Positions 1 to 50,800 are shown, counted from the stretch's first letter. The stretch is 50,800 nt of DNA from a virus (IMGVR_UViG_2563366874_000012), one strand, 5' to 3'. The notes: generated from the sequence alone by a model not told the origin. A program made the numbers and translations.

Positions 1-1236
1 CTACGATAACCGCGCATTCAACATGGCTATCTGTTCGTCGTTCATGTCATCAATCCACATACCGTAAATTTCATACACCATCTGCGCAGTTTCATGCCCC
101 ATTTGGCTGGCTATAAATGCCGGGTTCGCTCCTGCCGTCAACAGCCAGCAGGCAAAAGTATGCCGCGTATGGTACGGATTACGGCGGCGAATACCAGCAC
201 GTTTTACTGCTGCATTCCACCTTGCCCCCAAACTGCTTACCGAGTAATAAGGTTTTTGTTTTCCGTTACACACCCTGGGCATGAAAACAAAATGCAGTTT
301 TTGCTTTTCGGTTCTGCCGTACTCCCGATGATAAAAGGTGATTTCGCTTTTGCGATGATGCCCGGTCAGTTTGTATTGCTCCTTCAGTGCTTCAAGAGCA
401 GGCTGCAGTAGTGTTACTGTTCGGATCCCGGCATTTGTTTTTGGGGGACCGAACATATCAAGTATCGTCAGGTTTCTTCTGACATTCACTATTCCCTTTT
501 CGAGATCCACATCCTCCCACGCCAGAGCTGCCAGTTCCCCGTGACGAAGTCCTGAGTAAACGGCAAATTTCCACAAGTTCTGGCTCTGTCCTTTTTCACT
601 TTCCATTAATGCATTGAATTCTGTTTTAGATAACGGATCAGGCTTTATTCTGTTTCGCTGTAATTTTTTTACTCCTTCAAATGGTTTGGTTGATATAAAT
701 CCCGACTGATACGCAAAACGCAACAGCGAACAGAGCAGGGCGATATAGTTATCAACTGTGCGCACGGTTCTTCCTTTTTTGTTGGATCTTGGATTATCCA
801 GGTAAAGCGTTTCTCCATGCAGCAGTTCATTCCGGTAGTTTAAGATATCGCTATAACGAATATGTGATATCGGGGTACTTTCACAAATTATTATTCTGAG
901 TGTTTTTAATTGTGATTTCGTTTTCTTCATTGTGTTTGTTGTTAACTCTGTCTCTTTAATTTTTGTCCAGATATCACAAAGCTCTCCGAACGTTTTTATG
1001 ACTCTCGTTGTCACCATTTTTGCCCCAGTGCTGGACTGGGGAAAACGTCTTAAATACTCAAATTCACCGGAGTTTATTTCATGAACTATCAGCGCTCTTA
1101 AATTTCCGGCCTTTTTAATATTACTGTTTGTAATCTCCCAGCCTTTTAATGTTTCCCGACATCGTTTTCCTCGAAACATGAACCAGATGCGAATGTATCT
1201 ACCTCTAATCTCGACACCTGTTGGTAATTTAGACAT
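1..1236 (-). CDS. intR: Prophage integrase, tyrosine recombinase (Rac IntR-like), full length
   Basis: 412-codon ORF whose stop codon is window bases 1-3; N-terminus MSKLPTGVEIRGRYIRIWF; C-terminal region typical of lambda-family integrases; excisionase-like gene directly upstream. Confidence 0.9.
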   Translation of the reverse strand: MSKLPTGVEIRGRYIRIWFMFRGKRCRETLKGWEITNSNIKKAGNLRALIVHEINSGEFEYLRRFPQSSTGAKMVTTRVIKTFGELCDIWTKIKETELTTNTMKKTKSQLKTLRIIICESTPISHIRYSDILNYRNELLHGETLYLDNPRSNKKGRTVRTVDNYIALLCSLLRFAYQSGFISTKPFEGVKKLQRNRIKPDPLSKTEFNALMESEKGQSQNLWKFAVYSGLRHGELAALAWEDVDLEKGIVNVRRNLTILDMFGPPKTNAGIRTVTLLQPALEALKEQYKLTGHHRKSEITFYHREYGRTEKQKLHFVFMPRVCNGKQKPYYSVSSLGARWNAAVKRAGIRRRNPYHTRHTFACWLLTAGANPAFIASQMGHETAQMVYEIYGMWIDDMNDEQIAMLNARLS

Positions 1237-1237
1237 A

Positions 1238-1453
1238 TCATGAGTCTTTGATAAACTGATTTATCTTTGGATAGTTGTACCAGATAATCCCTCGTTTGCT
1301 GTCTGGCTTACCTAAAGGAGATACTCGTTTGAAGTGGAAGCCCTCCACCCAACAGTTCTGGCGGTATGCTTCAATTTGTCTGGCCCCCAGACCAGTGCGA
1401 AGCATCAGGCCGTATTCAACCATCCACTCTTCATTAAAGATTACTTGTGCCAT
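1238..1453 (-). CDS. ydaQ: Excisionase-like small DNA-binding protein (YdaQ/Xis-like)
   Basis: 71-aa [33 protein letters not shown]... placed immediately upstream of int, the canonical xis position. Confidence 0.7.
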
Positions 1454-1531
1454 CGCATCACCTCTGGCAGGCGCCAATGTTAGACTGAAATTGACGCCCG
1501 ATGTTGATTATTAATAATCAGCTATGAAGTT

Positions 1532-1741
1532 TTAATTTGAATACAATGCAATTCTCGAGGACTGAAGTTTCTCGCAATTAAAATTTATCAGTTTTACTTT
1601 CTGCTCTCTGGAAACGCCTGCTTCTTTTTTACCTGAGAGCATTTTTTCGCATTCTGATTTCGTTAGTTTAGATTTTGAATATCTTGTCCAGTTAGTAGGA
1701 GTGCCACCTTCCTTTTCAATAGTGGCGGTAATTTTATACAT
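1532..1741 (-). CDS. ydaC: Small Rac protein YdaC-like
   Basis: 69-aa ORF MYKITATIEKEGGTPTNW...; GGAGGTG Shine-Dalgarno 6 nt upstream of the chosen ATG; overlaps ralR stop. Confidence 0.6.
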   Translation of the reverse strand: MYKITATIEKEGGTPTNWTRYSKSKLTKSECEKMLSGKKEAGVSREQKVKLINFNCEKLQSSRIALYSN

Positions 1742-1928
1742 GAACACCTCCATTATTATTTCCAGTGGTTCGTTTATTCCATCTTTCGAGTGCTTCTTTT
1801 TCACTTCCACCATAACCGGTTCGGGATTCGCATCCGTTACACTTCGCTCGGTAATATCCTGAAATGGCTTTCACCGTTACTGATGGACAACCACAAAATG
1901 GACATGGTTTAACATTGTCATATCTCAT
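1734..1928 (-). CDS. ralR: Restriction alleviation protein Lar/RalR
   Basis: 64-aa ORF MRYDNVKPCPFCGCPSVTVKAISGYYRAKCNGCESRTGYGG with Cys-rich motif; position upstream of recT as in Rac. Confidence 0.8.
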   Translation of the reverse strand: MRYDNVKPCPFCGCPSVTVKAISGYYRAKCNGCESRTGYGGSEKEALERWNKRTTGNNNGGVHV

Positions 1929-1984
1929 AATTTTTCTCATAAAAAATATTTCAAGTTGGCGGTGCATTACACCGCCAGGCTGAA

Positions 1985-2794
1985 TTATTCCTCTGAATTA
2001 TCGATTACACTGTATTCCCCGGTTAATACAGAGGAATCTGCAGGATCGATTGTCAGTGGTTCCTTTTCATCCATTGATACTGCACGCTGGATCTCAATTG
2101 ATACGGGCAGATATTTGAACAGGCGACGAATAGCCGTTTTCTTTGCCATTTCTTCCCAGTGAGTTACCCACGGCCCGTTATTACCAGCTTTACTCAGGCT
2201 GCGCACCAGCTCAATCTGTTTGCGCGTCATAACTTCAAACTGAGTACCTCCGTCTTTCAGTCTTGCGACAGCATAGACGTGGGTAACCGGGGCATCTTCG
2301 TTTTCTCCCGGGCGGTGTATTAACTTTTCATCAAGGCCAAATTCGAAGCTAAACTCGTCACCTTCACGGACAACACGGGCTGACAGGCTGGCGATTTGAC
2401 CAGAACGGCGAGCCAGATCAATCATGCCGCGATAGCCAATGATTAGCTGAACGTTCTTTTTACCGCTCTTTTCGTTTTTATTACCAAAAGGCAGTAAATA
2501 TGCATGACCGAGGGCGCTACCTGGCTCAAGTCCGAGCTGTGAACACTGTACGATCGCACTGACAAAACTCATAGTGTCACAGTTTCCTAACGCCGGAACT
2601 TTACGAATTTCTGTAGTGGCGATACGGATCATACGTTCAGCCGTCATATGGCGTGGAAGAGCTGCTGCCAGTTGCTCTTTCATTGATGGCTGGTTAATAA
2701 AACTAATCACGTCGCTATTTTTAACTGCTGCTGGTGCACGGTTTCCCTGAGTTTTTTGCAGATCGGCTTTTGCGATTGGTGGTTGCTTAGTCAT
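1985..2794 (-). CDS. recT: RecT single-strand annealing recombinase
   Basis: 269-aa product [24 protein letters not shown]...; immediately downstream of recE on the same strand. Confidence 0.9.
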
Positions 2795-5387
2795 TTGCAT
2801 ATTCCTTAGCCCAGCGGGGCAGTGATAATGTCTTAATAGCTGGCCATTCATCGGTATTCAGGCAGTCAGACAGGGTTCGCAGATTGCGGTGATATTCCTG
2901 TTGACCTGCCAGTTTTGCTTCTTCGCCCATCATGAAAATTTCAACCGGATAACGTCCGCATTCAATAGTTGTGCTGGCAACCAGAAAAACGAAAGTTGGC
3001 TGCACTCCAAACAGTGCTTCATAACCGTCACTGTAGAATGCATCCTGAACGTGATAGCGGTAGTCGTAATAAGCGGTTTTGAATCGTTGAATATCCGCCG
3101 TAGTTTTCACGTCCATGATCCAGTGAAATTCAGGGATAATTTTGTCCGGACGGCACCGACACAAAATTCCTGTTTCAGGATCTTCCCAGTAAATTGATGA
3201 TTCAGCGTGTCCGGCGCTTTCAACAAGCCATTGCCCCAGCGGCAAAGCCATAACGCTTTGATACATGAGTTCAATTTTCCGGCCTTCTTCCGCAGTGATA
3301 ACCGTTTTTCCTGTGCTTGCGCATTCCATCAGAAACGCTTTCTCTTCTTCTTTTCCGGCGTTTGTACGGCGGTTAAATTCAGGTGCTACGATAAAGCGGT
3401 TACTGAATTCTTCCGGTTCAAGTACCCGGCAGTGGAAAGCAGTTCCTAAATCGAGCGTTTTTGTCTTTGTGGTGTCCACGGGGGCATTTTTACGCCACAA
3501 ATATAGTGCCGGAGTATCAGCAATGTCATCGAGCTGAGACTTACTGATACCGGGACCCGCGTGGTAATTCTCATTCGAAATTCCGTAATAAATACCTGGC
3601 TCTATGTCTTCTACGATTACGGGATCTGCGACTTCGCCAGTTTCATCACTGCAATCGTGATGCGGATCGCTGCCAGCATTCTCATTGTGCGGATGTTCAG
3701 CGCCTTCCATTTCCTCCGGATCATTTTCCTTAGCTTCAACCTGACTCTCTTCATCGAATGTTTCCTGGTATGTTGCGTCGCCCATCACCGCACCACAGTC
3801 AGGGCAGTTATCCCCGCCAGTCTGGCCGCAGGCATTGCAGGCTATTTCCGGTTCCTGTTGCACTACTGGCTCAGGTTGATTCATATCTGGGCTGGTTTTT
3901 TCCGTTTCTGGCTGGTTCTGGTACACACAATCGCGAGTCTGGATCCCCTTTACCCATTTCGGATCGTTCGGGTCGCTAATTCCGTCAACAAATTCACCAC
4001 GTGATGCAGCAAGCAATTTATCGGCATCGACAGGATTTTTTGATGGAATGTTTTTCCGGGCTTCATGGAGTTCTGCCCGCAGTTCCTGATATTTCGCATC
4101 AACAGAATTTACCTGTGACTGAGCATCCAGCGGCTGCGTGTCCTGATGATGTTCAGTTGCGTCCGGTTCCATTGTTTCAGCCTCTCCCTGTTCAACTGCC
4201 GTTGTTCCAGATGGTTGCGGTTTTTCTTCATCATCCTGTTTTCCTTCTTCTGTTACTCGCTGCGGCATCGGGGCAGAGGAGCGACTGCAGGCAATATCCA
4301 CGATTTCCGGATCAGGGTTGGCATGATCGGTTTCAGTCAGTACTTTGTTCAGATATTCAGTGACGTGCGCGGGGATGACCTCGATCCCAATTGGTGCTTC
4401 TTTTACGGACGCAACCACGATGGCGCGGGAATAATCCAGCCCGCCAGGCATGGTGATGAATTTGTCGCGGAAAACAGAAAAGGGCGGTTTATTTTCAGCG
4501 ATAATTTCCTCAATGCGTTTAGCGTGTGCCGGATGAAGGTTATAGATGTCCAGATCCATTGAACGGGCCAGTACGCCAGTGGCTACGTCGCGCGCCAGTG
4601 ACGTCAGATCGTGTACGAAACCTTCGCCGCGATCGGTGAGGTTTCCGCCGCCAGCATTAGCACCGGAAGCCGTGCGAGTGATGTGTGAAACACGATTACC
4701 CTTCATCCACTCTTTTGTCAGCAGTCCTCGATCGGTGTAGTCAGCGTTCAGGTATGCTTCGAAAAAAGCAGTTATCAGTCCCAGGTTTGAATTACCAGGA
4801 TTAGGGAAAACTTTGTCAGTGTCACGAACCAGTTTGTGGAGTTCGCGAATTTCCAGCGGGTCGAGCAGGCTGGTTTTGTGGGAAACAGCCAGGGCAGTAA
4901 CAGCCGGTAGTTCTTCAGCCCGAGCAATGTGTAATGCCTGGAGTCCGTCGCGTGAAACGTGCGTTACCGGTTTTTCGCTGCCGTGTTGAGCAAGCCAACG
5001 AATGGGCAGTTCCTGGCCAGAAATTGGGAGTAGCATATTCTCCTCAATCTCAGTCATGTCTTCGCCGTTGACGTTGGTATTGCCTTGATAATGAGCGTTG
5101 TCTGGTGCTGCTCCCGGTTTTAGTTCCCATGTCATGGAGTCTTTGCTGAGTTGATAGCGTTCACTCCAGGTAAAATCGATCTCACCTTCAGCGGGCAGGT
5201 CATTAACGACAGGAAAATTCGTGGCAACAGCTTTAAAATAGCTGCTCAGTTTTTTACCTGACTTAACGATCAGGTAGTCCAGAGTGGCACAGGTCGATTC
5301 AAAATCGTTGCTTGCCCACAGGACGACGTCAGGTTCACCGGATGATTTTTTCGCTTTCCGTAACAGGAAGAGTGGTTTTGTGCTCAT
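2787..5387 (-). CDS. recE: RecE exodeoxyribonuclease VIII
   Basis: 866-aa ORF, same length as Rac RecE; acidic central region and C-terminal nuclease domain; recE-recT operon arrangement. Confidence 0.9.
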
Positions 5388-5488
5388 TGTTTTTTAACCT
5401 CAACTCAGATTAAAATTCGTTTTGTTCAGTGAATGATCTTGCCGGATACACACTGTTCATAGCCTGCGCCATACGCAGGCTATTTCTT

Positions 5489-5764
5489 TCAGATTTCACC
5501 TTTTAATTTCATTGCAATTAGAGTTGCCAGAAATTCGGCTTTTTTTTCTGCGGGCAGATTCTTTCCGATATGCACCAGGCACATTTTTTTGACACCTTCA
5601 TCAAGTGTTTTTACGTTGCCTGATGGACCATCGATATCAACCACAGTGAATGGGGTTTCTTTATTTTCTGTTTTAATTACGTAGCCAATGCGCTTTCCTT
5701 CCAGATTCACCTCGTGAACAATGTCATCGGTAGTTACAACAGTGGCTTCATAATTGGTAATCAT
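5489..5764 (-). CDS. racC: RacC small protein
   Basis: 91-aa product MITNYEATVVTTDDIVHEVNLEGKRIGYVIK...; AAGGAG SD 7 nt upstream of ATG. Confidence 0.75.
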   Translation of the reverse strand: MITNYEATVVTTDDIVHEVNLEGKRIGYVIKTENKETPFTVVDIDGPSGNVKTLDEGVKKMCLVHIGKNLPAEKKAEFLATLIAMKLKGEI

Positions 5765-5838
5765 GTTTTTCTCCTTAATTAAGGTTGAGCGAATACCTGC
5801 CATTTCTGGCATAAATTCAGTTTCGAATAGTCAATTAA

Positions 5839-6009
5839 TTAAAGTTCATGTGCCATCTGGTCTTTTTCGGCACAAGCTTCACTGCAATATTTTCTCGGTT
5901 CGTCTTTTGATAAAATCCCGTGCATGAAGTGAAGCATTCTTTCAATAGCTTTGCTTTCTTCAACGTCTTTTTTGCAAAGGTGGTAAGCACATTTTATTTT
6001 CTTAGTCAT
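5839..6009 (-). CDS. ydaE: Small Cys/His-rich (zinc-binding type) protein YdaE-like
   Basis: 56-aa [59 protein letters not shown]; start overlaps kilR stop by 1 nt (TGATG). Confidence 0.6.
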   Translation of the reverse strand: MTKKIKCAYHLCKKDVEESKAIERMLHFMHGILSKDEPRKYCSEACAEKDQMAHEL

Positions 6010-6230
6010 CACCATGACTCCGCCTTTACAGGTAAACCATCACAACCGAGGAAGACTTTAATCATGCGGTCAGTAATGCATGTTTTTGTGGTCAGGTTAC
6101 GAATATATAGTTTTCGCTTTTTAATATTGTTTGCCGAGGCAATATATGTCCGGCCTTCATGAAGAACATAATCGCCAGGAGTCACACACTGACGTGGTAT
6201 TTCATCAGTTCCGAAGTGATGTGCAATCAT
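6009..6230 (-). CDS. kilR: KilR cell-division inhibitor (FtsZ-targeting kil protein)
   Basis: 73-aa [52 protein letters not shown]...; Rac gene order. Confidence 0.75.
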
Positions 6231-6671
6231 AATTATCTCCATTTTTACAAATGAATTTTGTTGATGCGGTGCCTGGTGCCTCCAGGTGACTGCAACCAGT
6301 TAACAATTACAGTCGGCTTTCCCACCCAAACCAATAAGGACTAACATGACTTTTAACTGTGCCACGTGCGCTTAGCCGCATTCACCGCATCACAAAATTC
6401 ACTTTAAAAAGGGCGGACATCAGCCGAACTTCAAGAAAAAAACTGATGCCGCCAGGACTACACACAGCAATGTCGTTATTTACAACCGGAGGCGCACTCC
6501 CACCATTTAAATTTAACAGACAAGACCGACTCTTTATGGATATCGGAAATGCGCCTTCGTGTTGTGCCCGGTTTTATTTCACCACCTCCGGGCTTCGGTG
6601 GTCTCGGCTATACCCCTACAGCGAGAGCTTGTGTTAACATTTCAATACCCTTACAGTTGAGAGTTATTGAT

Positions 6672-7160
6672 ATGTTGGATGTATTTACTCCATTGTTGAA
6701 ACTTTTTGCTAACGAGCCACTCGAAAGACTTATGTATACGATTATCATTTTTGGTCTCACTCTCTGGCTGATACCGAAAGAGTTTGCTGTCGCATTCAAT
6801 GCTTATACTGAAATACCCTGGCTCTTTCAGATTATCGTTTTTGCCTTTTCTTTCGTGGTCGCTATTTCCTTCTCAAGATTGCGAGCACATATTCAAAAGC
6901 ATTATTCATTGCTACCAGAGCAACGAGTATTGCTTCGTTTATCTGAGAAAGAAATCGCTGTATTTAAAGATTTCCTTAAAACAGGAAATCTTATTATCAC
7001 TTCTCCTTGCCGTAACCCGGTTATGAAAAAATTAGAACGGAAGGGCATCATTCAACATCAGAGTGATAGCGCAAACTGTTCTTATTATCTCGTCACCGAA
7101 AAATACTCCCACTTTATGAAGTTATTCTGGAACAGCAGGAGCAGGCGTTTTAATCGTTAG
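6672..7160 (+). CDS. sieB: Superinfection exclusion protein SieB
   Basis: 162-aa membrane protein MLDVFTPLLKLFANEPLERLMYTIIIFGLTLWLIPKEF...; located between kil and the immunity region. Confidence 0.8.
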   Translation: MLDVFTPLLKLFANEPLERLMYTIIIFGLTLWLIPKEFAVAFNAYTEIPWLFQIIVFAFSFVVAISFSRLRAHIQKHYSLLPEQRVLLRLSEKEIAVFKDFLKTGNLIITSPCRNPVMKKLERKGIIQHQSDSANCSYYLVTEKYSHFMKLFWNSRSRRFNR

Positions 7161-7312
7161 CTTACTGTGTGCTTCTCCAACCATCGTCGTGCGCCAGCTT
7201 CGGTTTTAAACGTTTTGCTTTTGGTATACGTCATGGCAGTGAACGTTCCATCCTGGTTGGGGAACACGCCGCACACCAGGGATTCGTTATTGCCGAGGTC
7301 GATTTTTTGCAT
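7158..7312 (-). pseudogene. ydaF: ydaF-like small ORF split across two frames by a 1-nt length change in a homopolymer run
   Basis: From ATG 7312(-): MQKIDLGNNESLVCGVF, then the frame ends after 9 more codons; the -1 frame continues NQDGTFTAMTYTKSKTFKTEAGARRWLEKHTVS*. Break maps to GGG at 7260-7262 (+ strand). Confidence 0.45.
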
Positions 7313-7322
7313 TTTTCGCACC

Positions 7323-7457
7323 TCACATCTTGTTGTTGCGGATAGAGGCTTCTGCCTGCCAGAGATCCCAGTCGTTGCTGCGTAGAGCCTGTACAGCCTG
7401 GCTGTAAGTGATATCGCAACAATCCATCAAATACTGAACTACTTCGTAATGCACCAT
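7323..7457 (-). CDS. ydaG: Small Rac protein YdaG-like
   Basis: 44-aa ORF MVHYEVVQYLMDCCDITYSQAVQALRSNDWDLWQAEASIRNNKM. Confidence 0.6.
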   Translation of the reverse strand: MVHYEVVQYLMDCCDITYSQAVQALRSNDWDLWQAEASIRNNKM

Positions 7458-7624
7458 CTTATCTCTCCCCTTAACGCCGGGTGGCGGAACTGAAACCTGC
7501 TGCACTGCAAAATCTGAACCCTGCCGTCATGTTCATACGCCTCGGGCTGGCTACTTAACCCCTGACCACTGCCTGGTAACTCGAAGTATTGCCCTGCGTT
7601 CTGTGGGGCGGGGTGGGTTGGTAG

Positions 7625-7747: not shown

Positions 7748-8167
7748 TTAAGAGGCTTTTTGTTTTTTCTTTCGTGCTAACTCTTCGTAAATTGCATTGT
7801 ACTTCTGTTTTTTCTCCTCAAGAGTTTTTAAAAGTTCATCTGTCTCACTGTCAGGGAGCTCGTCCAGAAGGTCAATGATGATTTTTTGTCTTGGATTTAA
7901 CTCCTGATAGAAACGTACCTGTCCACTTTCTTCTGTATCCTCTCCCAAAAGATAGGTTGGTGTTGTTCCAATGAGTGTTGCTAATTCCCTTAATTTCTCT
8001 CGGCGAGGAATTGTTTCGCCATTAAACCATTTGCTAACCGCTTTTGGTGTTAATTTCATTCGACGGGCAATTTCTGCCTGCCTTCCATGTTGTTCATAAC
8101 CAGCGTTTTCACAGGCTAGCGCAAGCCTACTGGCGAACTCTTTACGCGCTTTATCTTCATGAACCAT
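7748..8167 (-). CDS. racR: Prophage repressor RacR (CI-like, HTH)
   Basis: 139-aa ORF with N-terminal HTH (ASRLALACENAGYEQHGRQAEIARRMKLTPKAVSKW); divergent from cro-like ydaS. Confidence 0.8.
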   Translation of the reverse strand: MVHEDKARKEFASRLALACENAGYEQHGRQAEIARRMKLTPKAVSKWFNGETIPRREKLRELATLIGTTPTYLLGEDTEESGQVRFYQELNPRQKIIIDLLDELPDSETDELLKTLEEKKQKYNAIYEELARKKKQKAS

Positions 8168-8246: not shown

Positions 8247-8501
8247 ATGAACCAGAAAACACTTGAAGATGTAATCAAAACTGTTCGCGTTTCTGTTGTG
8301 GCCGACGTTTGTGGTGTCAGCCAAAGAGCAATCTACAAATGGATGGATAACGGAAAATTGCCTCGCACAGAATATACCGGCGAAACAAATTACGCTGAAA
8401 AAATCGCTCATGCATCAAACGGATTATTTTCTGCCGATGTAATTTTAACTATTGGCAGAAATAAAACTACTACGAAAAAGCTGATGGGAGTTGATTCATG
8501 A
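8247..8501 (+). CDS. ydaS: Cro-like DNA-binding protein YdaS
   Basis: 84-aa ORF MNQKTLEDVIKTVRVSVVADVCGVSQRAIYKWMDNGKLPR (HTH); GAGGG SD; divergent from repressor. Confidence 0.75.
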   Translation: MNQKTLEDVIKTVRVSVVADVCGVSQRAIYKWMDNGKLPRTEYTGETNYAEKIAHASNGLFSADVILTIGRNKTTTKKLMGVDS

Positions 8502-9790: not shown

Positions 9791-9796
9791 CTGACC

Positions 9797-11327: not shown

Positions 11328-11342
11328 TTGCCGGAGGCACCT

Positions 11343-40430: not shown

Positions 40431-43400
40431 ATGGGTAAAGGCAGCAGTAAGGGGCATACCCCGCGCGAAGCGAAGGACAACCTGAAGTCCACGCAGCTGC
40501 TGAGTGTGATCGATGCCATCAGCGAAGGGCCGGTTGAAGGTCCGGTGGATGGATTAAAAAGCGTGCTGCTGAACAGTACGCCGGTGCTGGACAGTGAGGG
40601 GAATACCAATATATCCGGCGTCACGGTGGTGTTCCGGGCCGGTGAGCAGGAGCAGACACCGCCGGAGGGATTTGAATCCTCCGGCTCCGAGACGGTGCTG
40701 GGTACGGAAGTGAAGTACGACACGCCGATTACCCGGACCATCACGTCGGCAAACATCGACCGTCTGCGCTTTACCTTCGGTGTGCAGGCACTGGTGGAAA
40801 CCACCTCAAAGGGGGACCGGAATCCGTCGGAAGTCCGCCTGCTGGTTCAGATACAGCGTAATGGTGGCTGGGTGACGGAAAAAGACATCACCATTAAAGG
40901 CAAAACCACCTCACAGTATCTAACATCGGTGGTGGTGGGTGACCTGCCGCCGCGCCCGTTCAATATCCGGATGCGCAGGATGACGCCGGACAGCACCACA
41001 GACCAGCTGCAGAACAAAACGCTCTGGTCGTCATACACCGAAATCATCGATGTGAAACAGTGCTACCCGAACACGGCACTGGTCGGCGTACAGGTGGATT
41101 CGGAGCAGTTCGGCAGCCAGCAGGTGAGCCGTAATTATCATCTGCGCGGGCGTATTCTGCAGGTGCCGTCGAACTATAACCCGCAGACTCGGCAATACAG
41201 CGGTATCTGGGACGGAACGTTTAAGCCAGCATACAGCAATAACATGGCCTGGTGTCTGTGGGATATGCTGACCCATCCACGCTACGGCATGGGGAAACGT
41301 CTTGGTGCGGCGGATGTGGACAAATGGGCGCTGTATGTCATCGGCCAGTACTGCGACCAGTCAGTGCCGGACGGCTTTGGCGGCACGGAGCCGCGCATCA
41401 CCTGTAATGCGTACCTGACCACACAGCGCAAGGCGTGGGATGTGCTCAGTGATTTCTGCTCGGCGATGCGCTGTATGCCGGTATGGAACGGGCAGACGCT
41501 GACGTTCGTGCAGGACCGACCGTCGGATAAGGTGTGGACCTATAACCGCAGTAATGTGGTGATGCCGGATGATGGCGCGCCGTTCCGCTACAGCTTCAGC
41601 GCCCTGAAGGACCGCCATAATGCCGTTGAGGTGAACTGGATTGACCCGGATAACGGCTGGGAGACGGCGACAGAGCTTGTTGAAGATACGCAGGCCATTG
41701 CCCGTTACGGTCGTAACGTCACGAAGATGGATGCCTTTGGCTGTACCAGCCGGGGGCAGGCACACCGCGCCGGGCTGTGGCTGATTAAAACGGAGCTGCT
41801 GGAAACGCAGACCGTGGACTTCAGCGTGGGCGCAGAAGGGCTTCGCCATGTACCGGGCGATGTCATTGAAATCTGTGATGATGACTATGCGGGTATCAGC
41901 ATCGGCGGGCGCGTGCTGGCGGTGAACAGCCAGACGCGGACGCTGACGCTCGACCGTGAAATCACGCTGCCATCCTCCGGCATCACGCTGATAAGCCTGG
42001 TTGACGGACAGGGGAATCCGGTCAGCGTGGAGGTTCAGTCCGTCACCGACGGCGTGAAGGTAAAAGTGAGCCGTGTTCCTGGCGGTGTTGCTGAATACAG
42101 CGTATGGGGGCTGAAGCTGCCGACGCTGCGCCAGCGACTGTTCCGCTGCGTGAGTATCCGTGAGAACGACGACGGCACGTATGCCATCACCGCCGTGCAG
42201 CATGTGCCGGAGAAAGAGGCCATCGTGGATAACGGGGCGCACTTTGACGGCGACCAGAGCGGCACGGTGAATGGTGTCACGCCGCCAGCGGTGCAGCACC
42301 TGACCGCCGAAGTCACCGCAGACAGCGGGGAATATCAGGTGCTGGCGCGATGGGACACGCCGAAGGTGGTGAAGGGCGTGAGCTTTATGCTTCGTCTGAC
42401 CGTGGCAGCGGATGACGGCAGTGAGCGGCTGGTCAGCACGGCCAGGACGACGGAAACCACATACCGCTTCACGCAACTGGCGCTGGGAAACTACAGGCTG
42501 ACAGTCCGGGCGGCAAATGCCTGGGGGCAGCAGGGCGATCCGGCATCGGTATCGTTCCGGATTGCCGCACCGGCAGCGCCGTCGCGGATTGAGCTGACGC
42601 CGGGCTATTTTCAGATAACCGCCACGCCGTATCTTGCCGTTTATGATCCGACGGTACAGTTTGAGTTCTGGTTCTCGGAAAAGCGGATTGCGGATATCAG
42701 GCAGGTTGAAACCACAGCCCGCTATCTTGGCACGGCGCTGTACTGGATAGCTGCCAGTATCAATATCAAGCCGGGCCATGATTATTATTTTTACATCCGC
42801 AGTGTGAACACCGTTGGCAAATCGGCATTCGTGGAGGCTGTTGGCCAGCCGAGTGATGATGCATCCGGCTATCTGGATTTTTTCAAAGGAGAGATAGGGA
42901 AAACCCATCTGGCTCAGGAGTTGTGGACGCAGATTGATAACGGTCAGCTTGCGCCTGACCTGGCTGAAATCAGGACGTCCATTACGGATGTCAGTAATGA
43001 AATCACGCAGACCGTCAATAAGAAACTGGAAGACCAGAGTGCAGCGATCTAGCAGATACAGAAGGTTCAGGTTGATACAAATAATAACCTGAACAGCATG
43101 TAGGCTGTGAAGCTGCAGCAGATGCAGGACGGACGCCTTTATATCGCGGGTATTGGTGCCGGTATTGAGAACACCCCTGACGGCATGCAGAGTCAGGTGC
43201 TGCTGGCGGCAGACAGGATTGCGATGGTTAATCCTGCGAATGGCAACACAAAGCCGATGTTTGTTGGTCAGGGCGATCAGATATTCATGAACGAAGTGTT
43301 CCTGAAATATCTGACGGCTCCCACCATTACCAGCGGCGGTAATCCTCCGGCATTTTCCCTGACACCGGACGGGCGGCTGACGGCGAAAAATGCCGATATC

Positions 43401-43910
43401 AGCGGTAGCGTGAATGCGAACTCCGGGACGCTCAACAACGTCACGATTAACGAGAACTGTCGGGTTCTGGGAAAACTGTCCGCGAACCAGATTGAAGGCG
43501 ATCTCGTTAAAACAGTGGGCAAAGCTTTCCCCCGGGACTCCCGTGCACCGGAGCGGTGGCCATCAGGGACCATTACCGTCAGGATTTATGACGATCAGCC
43601 GTTTGACCGGCAGATTGTTATTCCAGCGGTGGCATTCAGCGGTGCCAGACATGAACGGGAGAATAGCGATACTTATTCGTCATGCCGCCTGATAGTGAAG
43701 AAAAACGGGGCTGAAATTTATAACCGAACGGCGCTGGATAATACGCTGATTTACAGTGGCGTTATTGATATGCCTGCCGGTCACGGTCACATGACGCTGG
43801 AGTTTTCGGTGTCAGCATGGCTGGTAAATGACTGGTATCCCACAGCAAGTATCAGCGATTTGCTGGTTGTGGTGATGAAGAAAGCCACCGCAGGCATCAG
43901 TATCAGCTGA
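40431..43910 (+). pseudogene. Host specificity / central tail fibre protein J interrupted by two in-frame TAG codons
   Basis: One reading frame: 873 codons, TAG (43050-43052), 16 sense codons (QIQKVQVDTNNNLNSM), TAG (43101-43103), then 269 further codons [23 protein letters not shown]...; the track's downstream ORF starts at GTG 43107 with no SD. Confidence 0.8.
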
Positions 43911-43929
43911 ATTTTATAACCCCAATACG

Positions 43930-43953
43930 GGCGTCAGAAATGACGCCTTTTTT
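43930..43953 (+). terminator. Intrinsic terminator after J
   Basis: GGCGTCA-gaaa-TGACGCC followed by TTTTTT. Confidence 0.55.
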
Positions 43954-43977
43954 ATTGCAGAAAAGCGAGAGGTAATT

Positions 43978-44577
43978 ATGCGTAAATTATGTGCTGTTAT
44001 TCTGTCCGCAGTAGTCTGGCTGGTTGCCGCTGGTACGCCAGCGAGCGCAGCAGAGCATCAGTCCACACTAAGCGCCGGGTATCTTCAGACCCATACTGAT
44101 ATGCCCGGCAACGATGACCTGAAGGGCATTAACGTGAAATACCGTTATGAATTTACGGACACGCTGGGGCTGGTGACGTCATTCAGTTATGCCAATGCCA
44201 AAGATGAGCAAAAAACGCATTACAGCGATACCCGCTGGCATGAAGATTCAGTGCGTAACCGCTGGTTCAGCATGATGGCGGGGCCGTCTGTACGCGTGAA
44301 TGAATGGTTCAGTGCTTATGCGATGGCAGGTGTGGCTTACAGCCGTGTTTCAACGTTCTCCGGGGATTATCTCCGCGTAACTGACAGCAAGGGGAAAACG
44401 CACGATGTGCTGACCGGAAGTGATGACGGTCGCCACAGCAACACGTCTCTGGCGTGGGGGGCTGGCGTGCAGTTTAACCCGACCGAATCCGTGGCCATTG
44501 ATATTGCTTATGAAGGCTCCGGCAGTGGTGACTGGCGCACTGACGGTTTCATCGTGGGTGTCGGTTATAAATTCTGA
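43978..44577 (+). CDS. lom: Lom-like outer membrane protein (Ail/Lom family), intact
   Basis: 199-aa ORF with signal peptide MRKLCAVILSAVVWLVAAGTPASA and C-terminal beta-barrel signature ...GFIVGVGYKF; flanked by terminators on both sides. Confidence 0.8.
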   Translation: MRKLCAVILSAVVWLVAAGTPASAAEHQSTLSAGYLQTHTDMPGNDDLKGINVKYRYEFTDTLGLVTSFSYANAKDEQKTHYSDTRWHEDSVRNRWFSMMAGPSVRVNEWFSAYAMAGVAYSRVSTFSGDYLRVTDSKGKTHDVLTGSDDGRHSNTSLAWGAGVQFNPTESVAIDIAYEGSGSGDWRTDGFIVGVGYKF

Positions 44578-44630: not shown

Positions 44631-44999
44631 GTGGAGTGGATATGGCAGCAGTAAAAATCTCAGGTGTGCTGAAAGATGGTGCGGGAAAACCAATACAGAA
44701 CTGCACTATTCAACTGAAGGCAAAGCGTAACAGCACCACGGTACTGGTGAACACGGTGGCCTCTGAAAATCCGGATGAAGCCGGGCGTTACAGCATGGAT
44801 GTTGAGCATGGCCAGTACAGCGTCATCCTGCTGGTTGAAGGTTTTCCGCCTTCACATGCCGGGACCATTACCGTCTATGAAGGCTCCAGACCAGGTACGC
44901 TGAATGATTTTCTCGGTGCCATGACGGAAGATGATGTCATGCCGGAGGCATTGCGTCGTTTTGAGGCAATGGTGGAAGAAGTGGCACGCAACGCCGAAG

Positions 45000-45650
45000 C
45001 CGCCTCTCAGAGCGCAGCGGCGGCAAAGAAATCCGAAACTGCAGCGGCATCATCGAAGAACGCGGCGAAAACCTCAGAAACGAATGCAGCTAATAGTGCA
45101 CAGGCGGCAGCGACCTCAAAGACTGCATCGGCAAACTCCGCGACAGCAGCCAAAAAATCAGAAACCAACGCGAAAAACAGTGAGACAGCCGCAAAGACGA
45201 GCGAAACCAACGCAAAGTCCAGCCAGACGGCAGCGAAAACCAGCGAAACGAATGCTAAAGCCAGTGAAACTGCGGCAAAAAACAGCCAGGCTGCAGCAGC
45301 TGAAAGCGAGAGCGCGGCAGCCGGTTCTGCGACTTCAGCAGCTGGATCAGCAACTGCTGCGGCTAACAGCCAGAAAGCTGCGAAGACGAGTGAAACTAAC
45401 GCAAAGTCCAGCCAGACGGCAGCGAAGACCAGCGAAACGAATGCCAAAGCCAGTGAAACTGCGGCGAAAAGCAGTCAGGATGCAGCGGCCCAAAGCGAGA
45501 GTGCCGCAGCCAGTTCTGCAAGCGCGGCGGCTGCTTCTGCCACTGCATCAGCTAACAGTCAAAAAGCAGCAAAAACCAGTGAAACCAACGCAAAGGTGAG
45601 CGAAACAGCGGCTGCGAACTCAGCGAAAGCATCGGCAGCAAGCCAGACGG
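45000..45650 (+). repeat. In-frame tandem repeat region within the tail fibre gene
   Basis: Reiterated AAKTSETNAK(S/A)S(E/Q)TAAK units; about 120-bp near-identical DNA segments around 45213-45330 and 45393-45510. Confidence 0.6.
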
Positions 45651-46763
45651 CAGCTAAAGCAAGCGAAGATGCAGCCAGAGAGTACGCAAGCCAGGCTGCG
45701 GAGCCGTATAAATATGTCTTACAGCCGCTGCCTGATGTGTGGATACCATTTAACGATTCGCTGGATATGATTACGGGCTTTTCGCCATCATATAAAAAAA
45801 TTGTTATTGGTGACGATGAAATAACGATGCCTGGCGACAAGATTGTTAAGTTTAAACGTGCATCGAAAGCAACCTATATTAACAAATCTGGTGTGCTGAC
45901 AGAGGCTGCCATTGACGAGCCACGATTTGAACGTGATGGCCTGCTTATTGAGGGGCAAAGAACAAACTACATGCTCAATTCGGAAAGCCCTGCCAGTTGG
46001 GGGCGATCGTCAAATATGGATGTGCCCGAAACAGGGACGGATAATTTTGGTTTTACCTATGGAAAGTTTGTCTGCAACGATTCTCTGATTGGGCAAACCT
46101 CAGCCATTAATATGGCATCAATTGCTGCAACAAAGTCAGTTGATGTCTCAGGCGATAATAAACACGTGACAACCTCATGTCGTTTTAAAACAGAACTGCA
46201 GGTAAGGTTGCGTATCCGGTTTGATAAATATGACGGTAGCGCAACAACTTTTCTTGGTGATGCGTATATTGATACACAAACGCTTGAAATTAATATGACA
46301 GGCGGTGCTGCCTCAAGGATTACAGCGAGAGTCAGAAAGGACGAAGCTACCGGATGGATTTTTGCAGAGGCAACAATTCAGGCAATTGATGGGGAGTTAA
46401 AAATAGGCTCTCAGATACAGTATTCTCCTAAGCAGAGCGGGGCAACCGTATCTGGTGACTATATTTATCTGGCCACCCCACAAGTAGAAGATGGGCCTTG
46501 TGTATCATCTTTTATTATATCAGGAGCGACGGCGGCGACCCGCGCAAGCGATATAGTTACAGTTCCAATTAAGAATAATCTTTATAATCTTCCTTTTACG
46601 GTTCTTTGTGAGGTACATAAGAACTGGTATAAAACGCCAAATGCAGCGCCACGTGTTTTTGATACCGGCGGTCATCAAACCGGAGCGGCTATTATTCTTG
46701 GCTTCGGTCGTTCAACAGATTACGACGGATTTCCTTATTGCGATATTGGGTAATGACTCCAAC

Positions 46764-47267
46764 TTATTGATAGTGTTTTATGTTCAGATAATGCCCGATG
46801 ACTTTGTCATGCAGCTCCACCGATTTTGAGAACGACAGCGACTTCCGTCCCAGCCGTGCCAGGTGCTGCCTCAGATTCAGGTTATGCCGCTCAATTCGCT
46901 GCGTATATCGCTTGCTGATTACGTGCAGCTTTCCCTTCAGGCGTGATTCATACAGCGGCCAGCCATCCGTCATCCATATCACCACGTCAAAGGGTGACAG
47001 CAGGCTCATAAGACGCCCCAGCGTCGCCATAGTGCGTTCACCGAATACGTGCGCAACAACCGTCTTCCGGAGCCTGTCATACGCGTAAAACAGCCAGCGC
47101 TGGCGCGATTTAGCCCCGACATAGCCCCACTGTTCGCCCATTTCCGCGCAGACGATGACGTCACTGCCCGGCTGTATGCGCGAGGTTACCGACTGCGGCC
47201 TGAGTTTTTTAAGTGACGTAAAATCGTGTTGAGGCCAACGCCCATAATGCGGGCAGTTGCCCGGCAT
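46764..47267 (-). CDS. insB: IS1 InsB transposase ORF
   Basis: 167-aa ORF ...[43 protein letters not shown]... Confidence 0.9.
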
Positions 47268-47461
47268 CCAACGCCATTCATGGCCATATCAATGATTTTC
47301 TGGTGCGTACCGGGTTGAGAAGCGGTGTAAGTGAACTGCAGTTGCCATGTTTTACGGCAGTGAGAGCAGAGATAGCGCTGATGTCCGGCGGTGCTTTTGC
47401 CGTTACGCACCACTCCGTCAGTAGCTGAACAGGAGGGACAGCTGATAGAAACAGAAGCCAC
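47186..47461 (-). CDS. insA: IS1 InsA
   Basis: 91-aa [94 protein letters not shown]. Confidence 0.9.
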
Positions 47462-47792
47462 TGGAGCACCTCAAAAAAACCATCATACGCTAAATCAGTA
47501 AGTTGGCAGCATCACCCGATATTGGAGGAGCTAACAGACGGGTAAACGAAAACGCATCGCTTGAAAAAATGGTTATGGGGATGCGTGTAAAGTCAGAGCA
47601 GTCTACGTGCTCAGTAAGTAACGGGCATATATCCAGCGAAACAAAAACCACATGGTCCTGTATTCAGAACACCGCAATTATCCGTATTGGAGGCCAGACT
47701 ACAGCCGGGTTACGTCATTTATTTGGTCATGTCAGGAATTTCAGAATATGGCACAAGGCATTGACTGATGCTCAGGTGGGGGAGTCAATCTA

Positions 47793-48074
47793 ATGAAAGA
47801 TTTAACACTCAAATTTGCCGACAGGGCCGACTTTTCGGCCTTTATGGAGAGTATTGGCTATTATGATGACGAGTCGATGCAGGATGATATTCTTATTGAC
47901 GTGATAGGTAACGTGTACAAAGAAACCGGAGAACTGACTGAAGATGGCGAACCGGTATGTGTTAAGGAAGACGGATATTTTGTAAACGTGCGCATCATTA
48001 ATGATTCGCAAATATCGTCATTATTCGATGAATACGTGGTTGCTGTTGAGCATCAACTTCGTGGCTGGATGTGA
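47793..48074 (+). CDS. Hypothetical acidic small protein coupled to the tail fibre genes
   Basis: 93-aa ORF MKDLTLKFADRADFSAFMESIGYYDDESMQDDILIDVIGNVYKETGELTEDGEP...; ATG overlaps stf stop (TAATG). Confidence 0.45.
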   Translation: MKDLTLKFADRADFSAFMESIGYYDDESMQDDILIDVIGNVYKETGELTEDGEPVCVKEDGYFVNVRIINDSQISSLFDEYVVAVEHQLRGWM

Positions 48075-48083
48075 GGAAGAAAA

Positions 48084-49124
48084 ATGGCTACATCGACAGT
48101 AATTCCTGATGACATCAAAACGCTAAAATCCGACGTTAGCAAATTAAAAAACGATCAAGGAAGCTACGCAACAAAATTATATGTAGACAGCAAAGATGAA
48201 ATCGTTGGTGACTGGTCTGCTTCATGGTATCAGCAGGTATTGCCAACTAGCGGAGCTATATTTGGGAGAAAACTCCGCTCAACTCACAGGACGGCAGGTG
48301 TTGAGGATGCGTATTGCGAACTATACCTCAAAAAATGGATAGACAGTCCAGGTAACGCAATGGCGCGCCTTAACCTGAACGATAACGGGACAAACATTTG
48401 CTGGGACTTTACCAACCTTTATGGCGGTACGATGATTTTTCCCGGTGACAGCGGATACCTCAAAATGGGTAACTGCCTTATGTCATACAGCAAGCGTGGA
48501 AGTAACGCGCTTATTAAATTTGATTACACCGACACATTACAGATCAAATATGCCAATCATGGGTCAACCATGACATTAAACACACAGGGAACCGCTTATG
48601 CTGGTGTTACTGCTCAATTGTGGGGCAACTCCAGCCGTCCTGTTGTTTATGAAGTCGGTGTTGATGGTGGCGCTTATATGTTCTATGCGCAGAAAAATAC
48701 CGATAACACCTATATGTTAAGCGTTAATGGTGCATGTCATGCCACCGCATTTAACCAGCATTCCGACCGGGATCTGAAAGACAACATTCAGGTGATCGAT
48801 AATGCAACCGACCGCATCCGTAAAATGAACGGCTATACATACACGCTTAAAGAAAACGGTATGCCCTATGCTGGTGTCATTGCACAGGAAGCTCTGGAAG
48901 CAATCCCAGAAGCTGTAGGTTCCGCAATGAAATATCAGGACGGTGCAAGCGGATCGGAAGGTGAAGAAGGTGAACGTTATTACACAGTAGATTATTCTGG
49001 TGTTACTGGCTTGCTTGTTCAGGTAGCCAGAGAGTCAGACGACAGAATAACAGCACTGGAAGAAGAAAATGCAGAATTAAAACAAAGATTATCTGCAATT
49101 GAGGCGACGCTTGCGTCTAAATAA
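48084..49124 (+). CDS. Tail fibre / tailspike-type protein with C-terminal intramolecular chaperone domain (peptidase S74-like)
   Basis: 346-aa ORF; C-terminus ...SDRDLKDNIQVIDNATDRIRKMNGYTYTLKENGMPYAGVIAQEALEAIPEAV...YTVDYSGVTGLLVQVARESDDRITALEEENAELKQRL resembles the autoproteolytic chaperone of phage fibres. Confidence 0.6.
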   Translation: MATSTVIPDDIKTLKSDVSKLKNDQGSYATKLYVDSKDEIVGDWSASWYQQVLPTSGAIFGRKLRSTHRTAGVEDAYCELYLKKWIDSPGNAMARLNLNDNGTNICWDFTNLYGGTMIFPGDSGYLKMGNCLMSYSKRGSNALIKFDYTDTLQIKYANHGSTMTLNTQGTAYAGVTAQLWGNSSRPVVYEVGVDGGAYMFYAQKNTDNTYMLSVNGACHATAFNQHSDRDLKDNIQVIDNATDRIRKMNGYTYTLKENGMPYAGVIAQEALEAIPEAVGSAMKYQDGASGSEGEEGERYYTVDYSGVTGLLVQVARESDDRITALEEENAELKQRLSAIEATLASK

Positions 49125-49130
49125 TATTAA

Positions 49131-49153
49131 GGGGCCGAGCGCCCCGTTTTATT
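49131..49153 (+). terminator. Intrinsic terminator after second fibre gene
   Basis: GGGGC-cgagc-GCCCC followed by GTTTTATT. Confidence 0.5.
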
Positions 49154-49166
49154 GGGTAGGATGAAA

Positions 49167-49460
49167 ATGGATATAACACCTTTCCTTCATGCACTTTGTG
49201 CTGTGGCTGCGCAGGTACTGGTTGGTCTTTTTACCGGAAACTGGGCTTACGGGGCGATAGCCGGTTGTACGTTCTTCATTGCTCGTGAACATACCCAGGC
49301 AGAATATCGCTGGATTGAAATGTTCGGGCATGGCAAGCGTATGAATATGCCGTGGTGGGGTGGTTTTGATCCGCGCGTGTGGGATGTGGCAAGCCTGATG
49401 GATTTTTCTGTGCCGGTGGTGGCTTGTCTGCTGGTCTGGCTGTTGGTTAATCGTGGGTGA
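49167..49460 (+). CDS. Hypothetical small membrane protein
   Basis: 97-aa ORF MDITPFLHALCAVAAQVLVGLFTGNWAYGAIAGCTFFIAREHTQAEYRW...SVPVVACLLVWLLVNRG with two hydrophobic segments; AGGATGA SD-like upstream. Confidence 0.4.
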   Translation: MDITPFLHALCAVAAQVLVGLFTGNWAYGAIAGCTFFIAREHTQAEYRWIEMFGHGKRMNMPWWGGFDPRVWDVASLMDFSVPVVACLLVWLLVNRG

Positions 49461-49923
49461 AAAAGGGAGTTGTAAACGCAACACAGGAAGAGGTGCCGCT
49501 TCAGGTTGCTGGGAATAAGCGCCGGGGTCTGTTAAATCATGCCAATACGCTAATCGAGCCAGATATTGAGTAGCCTGCAGTCCGTCATGGCGTAATCGTT
49601 TTGTGATATGCTGCACGCCGTATGCAAGGAGCATGATTGCGCTCGGCTGGCGAGCGCTCGATAGTGCTACTATTGAATGATTGCTAGTCTAGGCGGATTG
49701 TACTTAAGTAATATGACGGTTCAAGGCGTTTAATCTGAAACCAGCCACATATTAGCCTTTTCAAACATTTCCTGAACACTCAGGCTTACCTGCTCTTTCT
49801 CGTGCTTGCTGGCATTTGTGTTGAGCGCCGGTGAATACTCTTACTCAACACTCCCAGAATTATATCTGTTGCATCAGGCAGACCATCAAAATTCTTTTGT
49901 CATAAACGAGTTCCACGAATAAT

Positions 49924-49942
49924 GTGCCCTATGGTAGGGCAC
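49924..49942. repeat. Perfect palindrome GTGCCCTA-tgg-TAGGGCAC in non-coding region
   Basis: 8-bp arms with 3-nt centre; 64 nt downstream of the stop of the minus-strand gene at 50006; no U-run, so operator-like rather than terminator-like. Confidence 0.5.
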
Positions 49943-50005
49943 TATTGATATGAATGAGTAGCTAAAAAGATTTTTCGTTATGTATTAATGTATCTGTCAC
50001 TTATT

Positions 50006-50800
50006 TTATAGTAAAGATGATATGCCAGCAAGAAATGGAGTAAATACTGTAATGTGTGCAGATACATTATTAATAAAGTCCTTATATGCTTCTTTAAAAC
50101 AGCCGCTTTGGTGACTGGCTGCCAGTGCCTGTACATTATCTATAAGGTGTGATTCTGTCGCGCCATCAAAGTTTTTCGATTTTATTGCCTCAATCATTTC
50201 ATTAAATATTGTGGGCTCATTATAATTTGTCGTAGTAGTTGCCGTAGCACCTGAAGAATGTATATTGATACTAGAACCGGAAATTCCACTGACATGAATA
50301 TTAGCTTCTTGTTTCATAAGAGGTAAACCATTCTCCATCTTGTATAGGTCACTATCTTGTAGCATCTGCAATGTGATACGTACTGCTGCTAATAGTTGTT
50401 CTTGCTTTTTGAATAAGGAACACATCTGTTCTACAGACCAAAGCTGAACTGCATTTTCTTCGCATGTTTTTTTAGCTATATTTGGCACTTCCGAATCATA
50501 ATTACCATAAACCCAAGTGTCCTTGAATCTTTCGATAATAGCTGTCAACGTTGGAAATTTACTGAAATCACTATTAATGGATAGTAACTCATCAGACATA
50601 TAAAGTGCCATATCTCTGCCTTCCGCATATACTGCTTCCACTTTATTCCGTGTTGCAAATGGTATTCTTGAAATAAAACGAAAATCCTCTTCATTTTTTA
50701 AATGGACCCAGTCTTTATCAAAACGGCTAAATTCGTACCCTATCGATAACAGTCTACTTATATATTGGGCTACTGATTCCAAATCTTTTCTTATGTCCAA
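50006..50800 (-). CDS. AT-rich hypothetical protein, 5'-truncated by window edge
   Basis: ORF open to the window end (at least 264 codons); C-terminal hydrophobic tail HITVFTPFLAGISSLL; composition much more AT-rich than the phage structural genes. Confidence 0.45.
   Translation of the reverse strand: MDIRKDLESVAQYISRLLSIGYEFSRFDKDWVHLKNEEDFRFISRIPFATRNKVEAVYAEGRDMALYMSDELLSINSDFSKFPTLTAIIERFKDTWVYGNYDSEVPNIAKKTCEENAVQLWSVEQMCSLFKKQEQLLAAVRITLQMLQDSDLYKMENGLPLMKQEANIHVSGISGSSINIHSSGATATTTTNYNEPTIFNEMIEAIKSKNFDGATESHLIDNVQALAASHQSGCFKEAYKDFINNVSAHITVFTPFLAGISSLL

Follow-up and report, generated by a model that had tools for sequence, protein, structure and literature searches.

The 50,800-nt stretch of viral DNA IMGVR_UViG_2563366874_000012 (hereafter the window, meaning the whole stretch analysed) is a complete, full-length Rac-type lambdoid prophage of a clinical Escherichia coli. 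Its holin gene is split by the insertion sequence (IS) IS2, its tail-tip gene J contains two amber codons and its side tail fibre gene stf is split by IS1. Together, the holin and J lesions have probably cost the element autonomous lytic growth. A previous reading of the sequence alone had described a selective decay pattern, with lysis and adsorption functions disabled while exclusion, recombination and cargo genes stay intact, and had proposed a prophage in the course of domestication. Our analysis supports the predicted loss of lysis and infectivity and found the other modules full length, but the stf defect would not be disabling, and neither selectivity nor domestication held up. Ordinary early prophage decay in a lineage with active ISs is, in our view, the probable explanation; selection of these targets by the host is not shown by the evidence. 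Both the element and the phenomenon are of already known kinds.

By exact-protein look-up, the window sequence was placed in draft scaffold KB732322.1 of GCA_000350785.1, a clinical isolate; E. coli B or another laboratory strain was thereby rejected as its origin. We compared it by megablast with 5,426 complete E. coli genomes, in which the prophages beside ttcA of strains MS 69-1, GN02461 and TUM14771 were collinear with the window at 99.5–100% identity over ∼48.7 kb, and a prophage of strain 50579417 was collinear at ∼99%. The only structural differences from these four relatives were IS2, IS1 and those strains' own IS5, and all four have intact holin, J and stf genes, as established by the comparison that the sequence-only reading had itself proposed. 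The Rac assignment (IntR/XisR module with recET, kilR, sieB and ralR/RalA) was confirmed by 99.4% DNA identity to K-12 Rac over window 1–7623. In MS 69-1 ttcA adjoins intR, and both attL and attR lie beyond the window edges. To the right of the window, the source scaffold continues with sitDCBA and then uspF-ompN; the sitABCD iron/manganese transporter, sitting between the prophage fibre end and uspF, looks like right-end prophage cargo.

The lesioned genes, their insertions and the remaining lysis genes are located as follows.

17832–19509, plus strand: lambda-family holin gene split by IS2 (nt 1–212 at 17832–18043, nt 213–342 at 19380–19509)
18044–19374, minus strand: IS2, 1331 bp, insC/insD, with the 5-bp duplication GCGCT at 18039–43 and 19375–79
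19513–20450, plus strand: endolysin (lambda R-like) and Rz genes (PHROG 90; Pfam Phage_lysis)
40431–43910, plus strand: tail-tip/host-specificity gene J, with TAG at 43050–43052 (codon 874) and at 43101–43103 (codon 891); 42965–43943 is mosaic
44642–47793, plus strand: side tail fibre gene stf split by IS1 (N part 44642–46748, a 703-aa product; C part resuming after 47516; Pfam phage_tail_N)
46749–47516, minus strand: IS1, 768 bp, with the 8/9-bp target duplication CGATATTG(G)

IS2 interrupts the holin gene after nt 212 of 342, that is, after codon 70. The uninterrupted holin of the relatives has 113 aa and matches Pfam Phage_holin_3_1 over positions 2–99 of 99. When reconstructed, the window gene gives this match too (E = 2e-27), starts with MKM (a dual start) and is followed by R-like and Rz genes, which identifies it as a class I, lambda S-type holin, and the insertion would remove its third transmembrane segment. 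The insert itself has all the marks of IS2, a member of the IS3 family: terminal repeats, the GCGCT duplication, open reading frames (ORFs) of 121/136 and 301 aa with HTH_Tnp_1 and rve domains, and a match to annotated IS2 copies in the genome collection. Separate assemblies also contain the holin-IS2 fusion ORF, in three contigs of which one exceeds 1 Mb. The endolysin downstream has a hydrophilic N-terminus with no signal-anchor. A signal-anchor-release endolysin that would bypass the holin was considered and rejected, as the N-terminus is lambda R-like and hydrophilic.

The second insertion cuts stf at codon ∼705 of 793. It carries the Pfam domains InsA and DDE_Tnp_IS1, is flanked by the duplication listed above and matches IS1A/IS1B copies. 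The stf::IS1 junction was also found in the complete genome CP164482.1 at 99.94% identity over 5 kb. Both insertions are thus corroborated by their target duplications and by independent assemblies, which answers, as far as IS2 and IS1 are concerned, the objection that the lesions might be assembly artefacts. In the relatives, the Prokaryotic Genome Annotation Pipeline (PGAP) reports a partial N piece of stf and a 'head spike fiber', as if the gene were already broken; this was rejected since the ORF is continuous over 793 codons in MS 69-1. The PGAP split falls near an alanine/serine-rich repeat region (window 44642–45008), which may be its cause.

The J gene was identified by its FNIII-A_GpJ, Phage-tail_3, Ig_J, Phage_Tail_Tip and Ig_GpJ_C domains and by synteny after M-L-K-I. 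Relative to the other strains, codon 874 has changed from CAG to TAG and codon 891 from TGG to TAG, both ahead of the last two domains, Phage_Tail_Tip and Ig_GpJ_C. When 6,959 J copies were compared with the 181 nt surrounding the ambers, the closest differed at exactly two positions. A metagenome scan for the 66-mer spanning both ambers gave no match. Both stop codons named in the sequence-only reading are present, but they do not count as two independent lesions of this gene, because each sits alone on a separate J paralogue in CP164482.1. That genome holds two prophages ∼218 kb apart that share the tail-tip module: a lambda-head prophage, in which J has the codon-874 amber only and is followed by stf::IS1, and a Rac-head prophage, in which J has the codon-891 amber only and the Qin-type right end is identical to that of 50579417. 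The two copies are identical over window 38470–42965. Over the final 980 nt of J they diverge at 60 sites, and in this stretch only one nucleotide, the amber it carries, separates each copy from a widespread natural allele (C4 type and MS 69-1 type, respectively). The 3′ end of the window J differs from one copy at 29 positions and from the other at 31; it matches one or the other at all 60 sites and has no private site. The most parsimonious history has a single origin for each amber, the two on different J paralogues, with the window J derived from both. The second amber was most likely imported from the co-resident paralogue, via either gene conversion or a chimeric short-read consensus.

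The chimeric consensus, in which the cis double amber would be a mixture of two paralogues that each truly have one amber, is a serious candidate, to which we give somewhat less than an even chance. KB732322.1 is an Illumina draft scaffold, and a 4.5-kb identical L-K-I-J stretch shared by two prophages is unresolvable by short reads. The perfect mosaic of the two single-amber copies, with ∼12–15 switches between the paralogue types in 1.7 kb, is what such a mixture would give, and the nearest natural allele has at least 22 mismatches in 1020 nt. Furthermore, the exact J-N and J-C products occur only in this one assembly, though holin::IS2 occurs in three. Some of the switches, however, are only 1–12 nt apart and the ambers themselves 52 nt apart, and a large-k graph assembler could produce such close switches only from reads that already carried them. 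The same two types are also mixed patchily in natural J alleles from complete genomes, which makes real gene conversion credible, and the window sequence has neither N nor an obvious break. In any case, a chimera would touch only the phasing of the ambers: each amber, like IS2 and IS1, is corroborated independently. More generally, short-read assemblies of multi-copy phage tail genes may assign stop codons to the wrong paralogue.

Two further observations concern this region. In both 50579417 and CP164482.1, a Rac left arm and head continue into a right end of Qin type (pinQ-ydfK-ynfT-ydfJ). The stf::IS1 right arm of CP164482.1 lies on the lambda-head prophage ∼218 kb away, at a locus whose examined sequence stops short of sit, and the same right arm is sit-linked in the window's scaffold. 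A large inversion between the prophages at the Rac and Qin sites, by way of the tail genes that they share, would fit this arrangement of arms. In addition, a GG>AA change at 40922–3, together with the two G:C>A:T ambers, resembled an ultraviolet or mutagen signature. This candidate was rejected, as natural alleles come within one mismatch over that 121-nt stretch, which is most likely an imported patch.

The lesions are very young. Neither the holin/IS2 junction, the stf/IS1 junction nor either amber was found in any of the 5,426 complete genomes of the collection. Outside J, comparison with the three close relatives and one outgroup left only six private substitutions in the window, with a mixed spectrum. 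Relatives such as MS 69-1 and 50579417, in which these genes are intact, carry the prophage at 99.9–100% identity. The disabling lesions are thus private to the lineage and a few mutations old. The integrity of the other ∼60 genes is therefore uninformative on selection, because they are equally intact in the lesion-free relatives and have had no time to decay. Likewise, purifying selection after the element became defective could have left its mark only within the six private single-nucleotide polymorphisms that have accumulated since, and the family-wide ratios of non-synonymous to synonymous substitution rates (dN/dS) pre-date the lesions. Intact remaining genes should not be taken as evidence of selection when lesions are this young.

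With regard to the targets, all three genes lie in the late operon, which makes up 56% of the element without its ISs, and three hits out of three would fall there by chance with P = 0.18 under a length-based null. In size, J ranks first among the genes of the element and stf fourth. Chance combined with gene size could account for which genes were hit, and the claim of selectivity is not borne out. Some results weigh against this conclusion. If the target category is narrowed to lysis and host recognition, 18% of the element, three out of three has P ∼0.006, a value for a category drawn post hoc. The 342-nt holin alone is a target of 0.7%. Both J paralogues of the lineage carry a private amber within 52 nt of each other (P ∼0.03 by chance), a hint of non-randomness. 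Finally, dN/dS relative to 50579417 was 0.13 for early and 0.31 for late genes (Fisher P = 0.036), a weak fit to relaxed constraint on virion genes; the comparison is based on 37 late-gene substitutions at very low divergence (dS = 0.004), where dN/dS is inflated.

Lesions elsewhere in the family show no such focus. The head module was found in 1,217 of the 5,426 genomes, 720 of which cover at least 80% of it; our survey consisted of a small systematic sample of these genomes and of look-ups around conserved tail proteins. Several sampled genomes have a fully intact prophage. In other strains, lesions hit terL, terS, Q, the tail tube gene, the tape measure gene, L, M, the endolysin gene, recE, int and sieB. 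In NT1F31, ISs lie in the endolysin gene, terL and the tail tube gene, L is frameshifted and sieB truncated; in strain 3059, the tape measure gene contains an internal stop and sieB is missing. F1267 has lost most of its early region behind an IS3 in recE; in addition, its Q carries an IS, its terS is frameshifted and an IS1 lies beside M. In CP148498.1 the end of the tape measure gene, M and L are replaced by two IS3-family copies. Another genome shows an IS1-mediated deletion, with recE split and int truncated. J itself is shattered in one surveyed genome and carries an IS3-family element in MS 196-1 and two other genomes. Family-wide, lesions are thus found throughout the genome, most often in the largest genes, and exclusion and recombination genes are not spared. 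Within this small sample we observed no function-specific, non-random inactivation across lineages, and several lesioned strains have J, stf and holin intact.

Selective domestication, that is, host selection for the loss of lysis and adsorption with purifying selection keeping sieB, ren, bstA, recET, trkG, lom and sit, is unlikely in our view. It would account for the fact that every private disabling lesion is in holin, J or stf, with the low P value of the narrow category, and for the near-coincidence of the truncation points in the lineage's two J paralogues. The low dN/dS of early (0.13) and cargo (0.10) genes also agrees with it, and the idea that 'grounded' or domesticated prophages are favoured is established in the literature (PMC6379469). 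The recency of the lesions nevertheless deprives the integrity of the other genes of its meaning, the narrow category was chosen post hoc where the whole late operon gives P = 0.18, and other lineages have lost sieB, recE, int or the whole early region while J, stf and holin stayed intact. Lambda biology also speaks against it. J and stf are late genes, silent in the lysogen; and Stf is dispensable, as lambda PaPa, which lacks Stf through a frameshift in stf, still plates. Loss of the holin does not save a cell after induction and brings it no obvious benefit, since kilR and the replication genes are still in place.

A narrower form of selection is still less probable: the J paralogue ambers, 17 codons apart, and the loss of the distal stf end might reflect selection in the lysogen against receptor-binding tail proteins (through self-adsorption or triggered defence), or the ambers might be silent in a suppressor background; we consider either very improbable. 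Least credible of all is that the ambers are conditional, through an amber suppressor in the lineage or through J working as a split protein (873/890 aa plus a 262-aa C-terminal ORF at 43122–43910): both are TAG, at codon 874 a suppressor that inserts glutamine would bring back the wild-type Gln, and both truncations fall just before the Phage_Tail_Tip and Ig_GpJ_C module, which gene callers report as a separate 262-aa ORF, but there is no tRNA within the window and no convincing ribosome-binding site before 43122, neither amber occurs in ∼7,000 other J copies, and the identity of the codon says little because few stops can be reached by such single changes (TAG is one of only two stops one transition from TGG, and the only stop one change from CAG).

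Under ordinary early decay, the consequences of the lesions can be predicted from lambda biology. IS2 would have disabled the holin, IS1 the distal end of stf, and the premature TAG in J would remove the receptor-binding end. After induction, excision, replication, late expression and head filling would be expected to continue. Since Q is intact, Q-modified transcription should read through both ISs and keep the genes for terminase, head and tail active. Lysis would not follow, because a cytoplasmic R-type endolysin without a signal-anchor cannot cross the membrane without a holin, and the particles would be non-infectious, because J is truncated at codon 873 and lacks Phage_Tail_Tip and Ig_GpJ_C. 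Loss of the distal 88 Stf residues would only slow adsorption. Packaging or transfer upon complementation, as suggested by the sequence-only reading, is plausible. Indeed, in O157 Sakai, prophages damaged by ISs or mutations are still induced, packaged and transferred via complementation or recombination between co-resident prophages, a pool that includes Sp10 at the Rac site (PMC2669165). If the window element were complemented, trkG, lom and several anti-phage genes could become mobile, possibly along with the adjacent sit genes; such mobilisation is a known phenomenon.

The window combines the left arm of K-12 Rac with another immunity allele, a P22-type head, a lambda-type tail, trkG and lom. 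The genes for integrase and excisionase, recET, sieB, replication, terminase, portal, capsid, tail, lom and trkG were found to be full length, as the sequence-only reading had stated, and differ from those of MS 69-1 by 0–3 residues. The early region contains the following features.

1–1236 and 1238–1453, minus strand: intR (integrase) and xisR (excisionase), proteins 100% identical to K-12 IntR/XisR
1532–1928, minus strand: rcbA and ralR, 100% identical to the K-12 proteins
1557–1735, plus strand: RalA antitoxin small RNA (Rfam, 225 bits)
1985–2794 and 2787–5387, minus strand: recT and recE, full length, 100% and 99.5% identical to K-12
6009–6230, minus strand: kilR (translation compared with K-12)
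6672–7160, plus strand: sieB (translation compared with K-12)
7157–7312, minus strand: ydaF, a complete 51-aa ORF
7323–7457, minus strand: ydaG-like gene (translation compared with K-12)
7748–8167, minus strand: helix-turn-helix (HTH) repressor-like gene (PHROG)
8247–8501, plus strand: Cro-like HTH gene (PHROG)
8498–8920, plus strand: ydaT/CII-like gene (PHROG), the K-12 orthologue at 97.9%
8933–10543, plus strand: ydaU (O-like/primosomal) and ydaV (DnaC-like loader) (PHROG), 99.3% and 100% identical to K-12
11343–11765, plus strand: Ren-like gene, exclusion/defence cargo (region 11343–13325, with matches to PHROG 142 and PHROG 6287)
Within 11343–13325, between the Ren-like and BstA-like genes: hypothetical 167-aa gene
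12552–13325, minus strand: BstA-like KilA-N gene (Pfam KilA-N and BstA_C)
13680–13850, plus strand: sok RNA (Rfam, 99 bits)
13848–13973, plus strand: truncated hok, 41 aa (Pfam HOK_GEF positions 1–34 of 42)
15265–16693, plus strand: ninB-like, YbcO/HNH-like and Q-like antiterminator genes (Q at 16151–16693; PHROG 319, 131 and 753), identical to the relatives

Three gene assignments call for comment here. The supposed frameshift in ydaF does not exist: the gene differs from K-12 YdaF by one substitution and is identical to the protein annotated as intact in the relatives. hok, described as possibly disabled, is indeed truncated to 41 aa, so that with sok present and a full-length Hok of ∼50 aa missing the locus is a decayed hok/sok copy; presumably, judging from HokD, a 1-nt deletion after codon 37 is responsible. 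This lesion is old, because the same 41-aa protein is found in all four relatives. Finally, the three immunity genes reported as full-length racR/ydaST include the K-12 orthologue of ydaT, but those labelled racR and ydaS share only 36% and 33% identity with K-12 over ∼30 aa and represent a different immunity allele, as positional analogues and not orthologues.

The slot between the Ren-like gene and ninB (window 11343–14397) is a variable cargo/defence hot spot across strains. In the window it holds the BstA-like KilA-N gene, hok/sok and a TehB-like gene; elsewhere it holds IteA/IteS (3059), a Sll1717-type ATPase (PRO_A-1422) or DUF262/DUF1524 and TPR genes (F1267). An IS5 lies at window 12517–12520, between the 167-aa and BstA-like genes, in MS 69-1, GN02461 and TUM14771. 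The window has no IS5, and its lineage therefore diverged before that insertion.

The remaining features, from the right of the lysis genes to the end of the window, are listed below.

20588–22045, plus strand: trkG potassium transporter gene (cargo), 100% identical to K-12 TrkG
22183–22974, plus strand: 'ynaK', ParB-N-like, 263 aa, full length (Pfam/PHROG)
22967–23899, plus strand: TET-associated glycosyltransferase (TAGT)/GREB1-related gene, 310 aa (Pfam PF20691, E = 3e-35; PHROG 842)
24090–31078, plus strand: terS, terL, portal (DUF4055), Mu-F-like minor head, scaffold-like and P22-type major capsid genes (Pfam), 0–1 aa from MS 69-1
31121–40370, plus strand: head-tail connectors, tail terminator, tube, G/GT chaperone, tape measure, M, L, K and I, full length, 0–1 aa from MS 69-1
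43978–44577, plus strand: lom outer-membrane protein gene (cargo), 199 aa, intact
47793–49460, plus strand: distal fibre genes of 93 aa, 346 aa (Peptidase_S74 chaperone domain) and 97 aa (Pfam), identical to MS 69-1
49730–49916, minus strand: dinI-like pseudogene, frameshifted
50006–50800, minus strand: hypothetical 264-aa gene

Two annotated defects in these genes were examined and rejected. PGAP flags the first 258 nt of ynaK as partial, but the full-length 263-aa ORF is kept in eight relatives at 98–100% identity over its whole length; the flag apparently arises because K-12 ynaK is a deletion-truncated form (the K-12 junction is at window 22436). Similarly, the tail chaperone gene appeared broken, as ydaY and a 66-aa ORF with a gap, but the G/GT region (34336–34656) has the canonical −1 slip site AAAAAAG at 34336 with an open −1 frame, and the 66-aa ORF annotated on its own corresponds to the T part of the G-T fusion product. 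The TAGT-like gene, likewise kept at full length in eight relatives, overlaps the ynaK stop directly upstream of terS, and no TET/JBP partner was found within the window. The dinI-like pseudogene, which the sequence-only reading had not mentioned, is an old lesion common to relatives: it is annotated as frameshifted in MS 69-1, GN02461 and TUM14771, and the window sequence is identical to that of MS 69-1.

We found no relevant literature on Rac with IS, holin and tail fibre. An isolated virion of the window's type was also sought: a phage collection yielded records numbered by strain and region (e.g. 689R7) and one Salmonella phage record of unknown origin, and since the names suggest predicted prophage regions and not phages purified from plaques, these were rejected as proof of viability.

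Among the closest known systems is K-12 Rac. In its left arm, intR, xisR, rcbA, ralR/RalA, recT, recE, racC, ydaE, kilR, sieB, ydaF and ydaG are position-matched to the window at 99.4% DNA identity, and its ydaT/U/V and trkG proteins are 97.9–100% identical. K-12 Rac corresponds to the window element minus three deletions (window 11016–20005, 22437–33996 and 35755–44219), which leave it without Q, holin, endolysin, the entire head module and most tail genes; it also differs in its immunity allele (racR/ydaS), in lomR::IS5 and in its stf/tfa/pin end. In the window the element is full length and its lesions are point-like only, and so it shows the cryptic Rac of K-12 as it was before its three large deletions. 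The prophages of MS 69-1, GN02461, TUM14771 and 50579417 share the window's gene order and the old hok lesion, and the first three also the dinI-like lesion, but their holin, J and stf are uninterrupted and that of 50579417 has a Qin-type right end. Set beside them, the window captures the first steps of inactivation, a handful of mutations from the intact state. In lambda, Sam7 particles accumulate without lysis and Jam mutants make no infectious tails; these and the PaPa stf mutation are laboratory alleles, in contrast to the window lesions, which are natural and, in two cases, caused by ISs. Sp10 of O157 Sakai resembles the window as a lambdoid prophage at the Rac site with ExoVIII-type recombination, a DnaC-type loader and a non-lambda head, and differs from it, as far as its published description allows comparison, in that no holin or J lesion is reported (PMC2669165).

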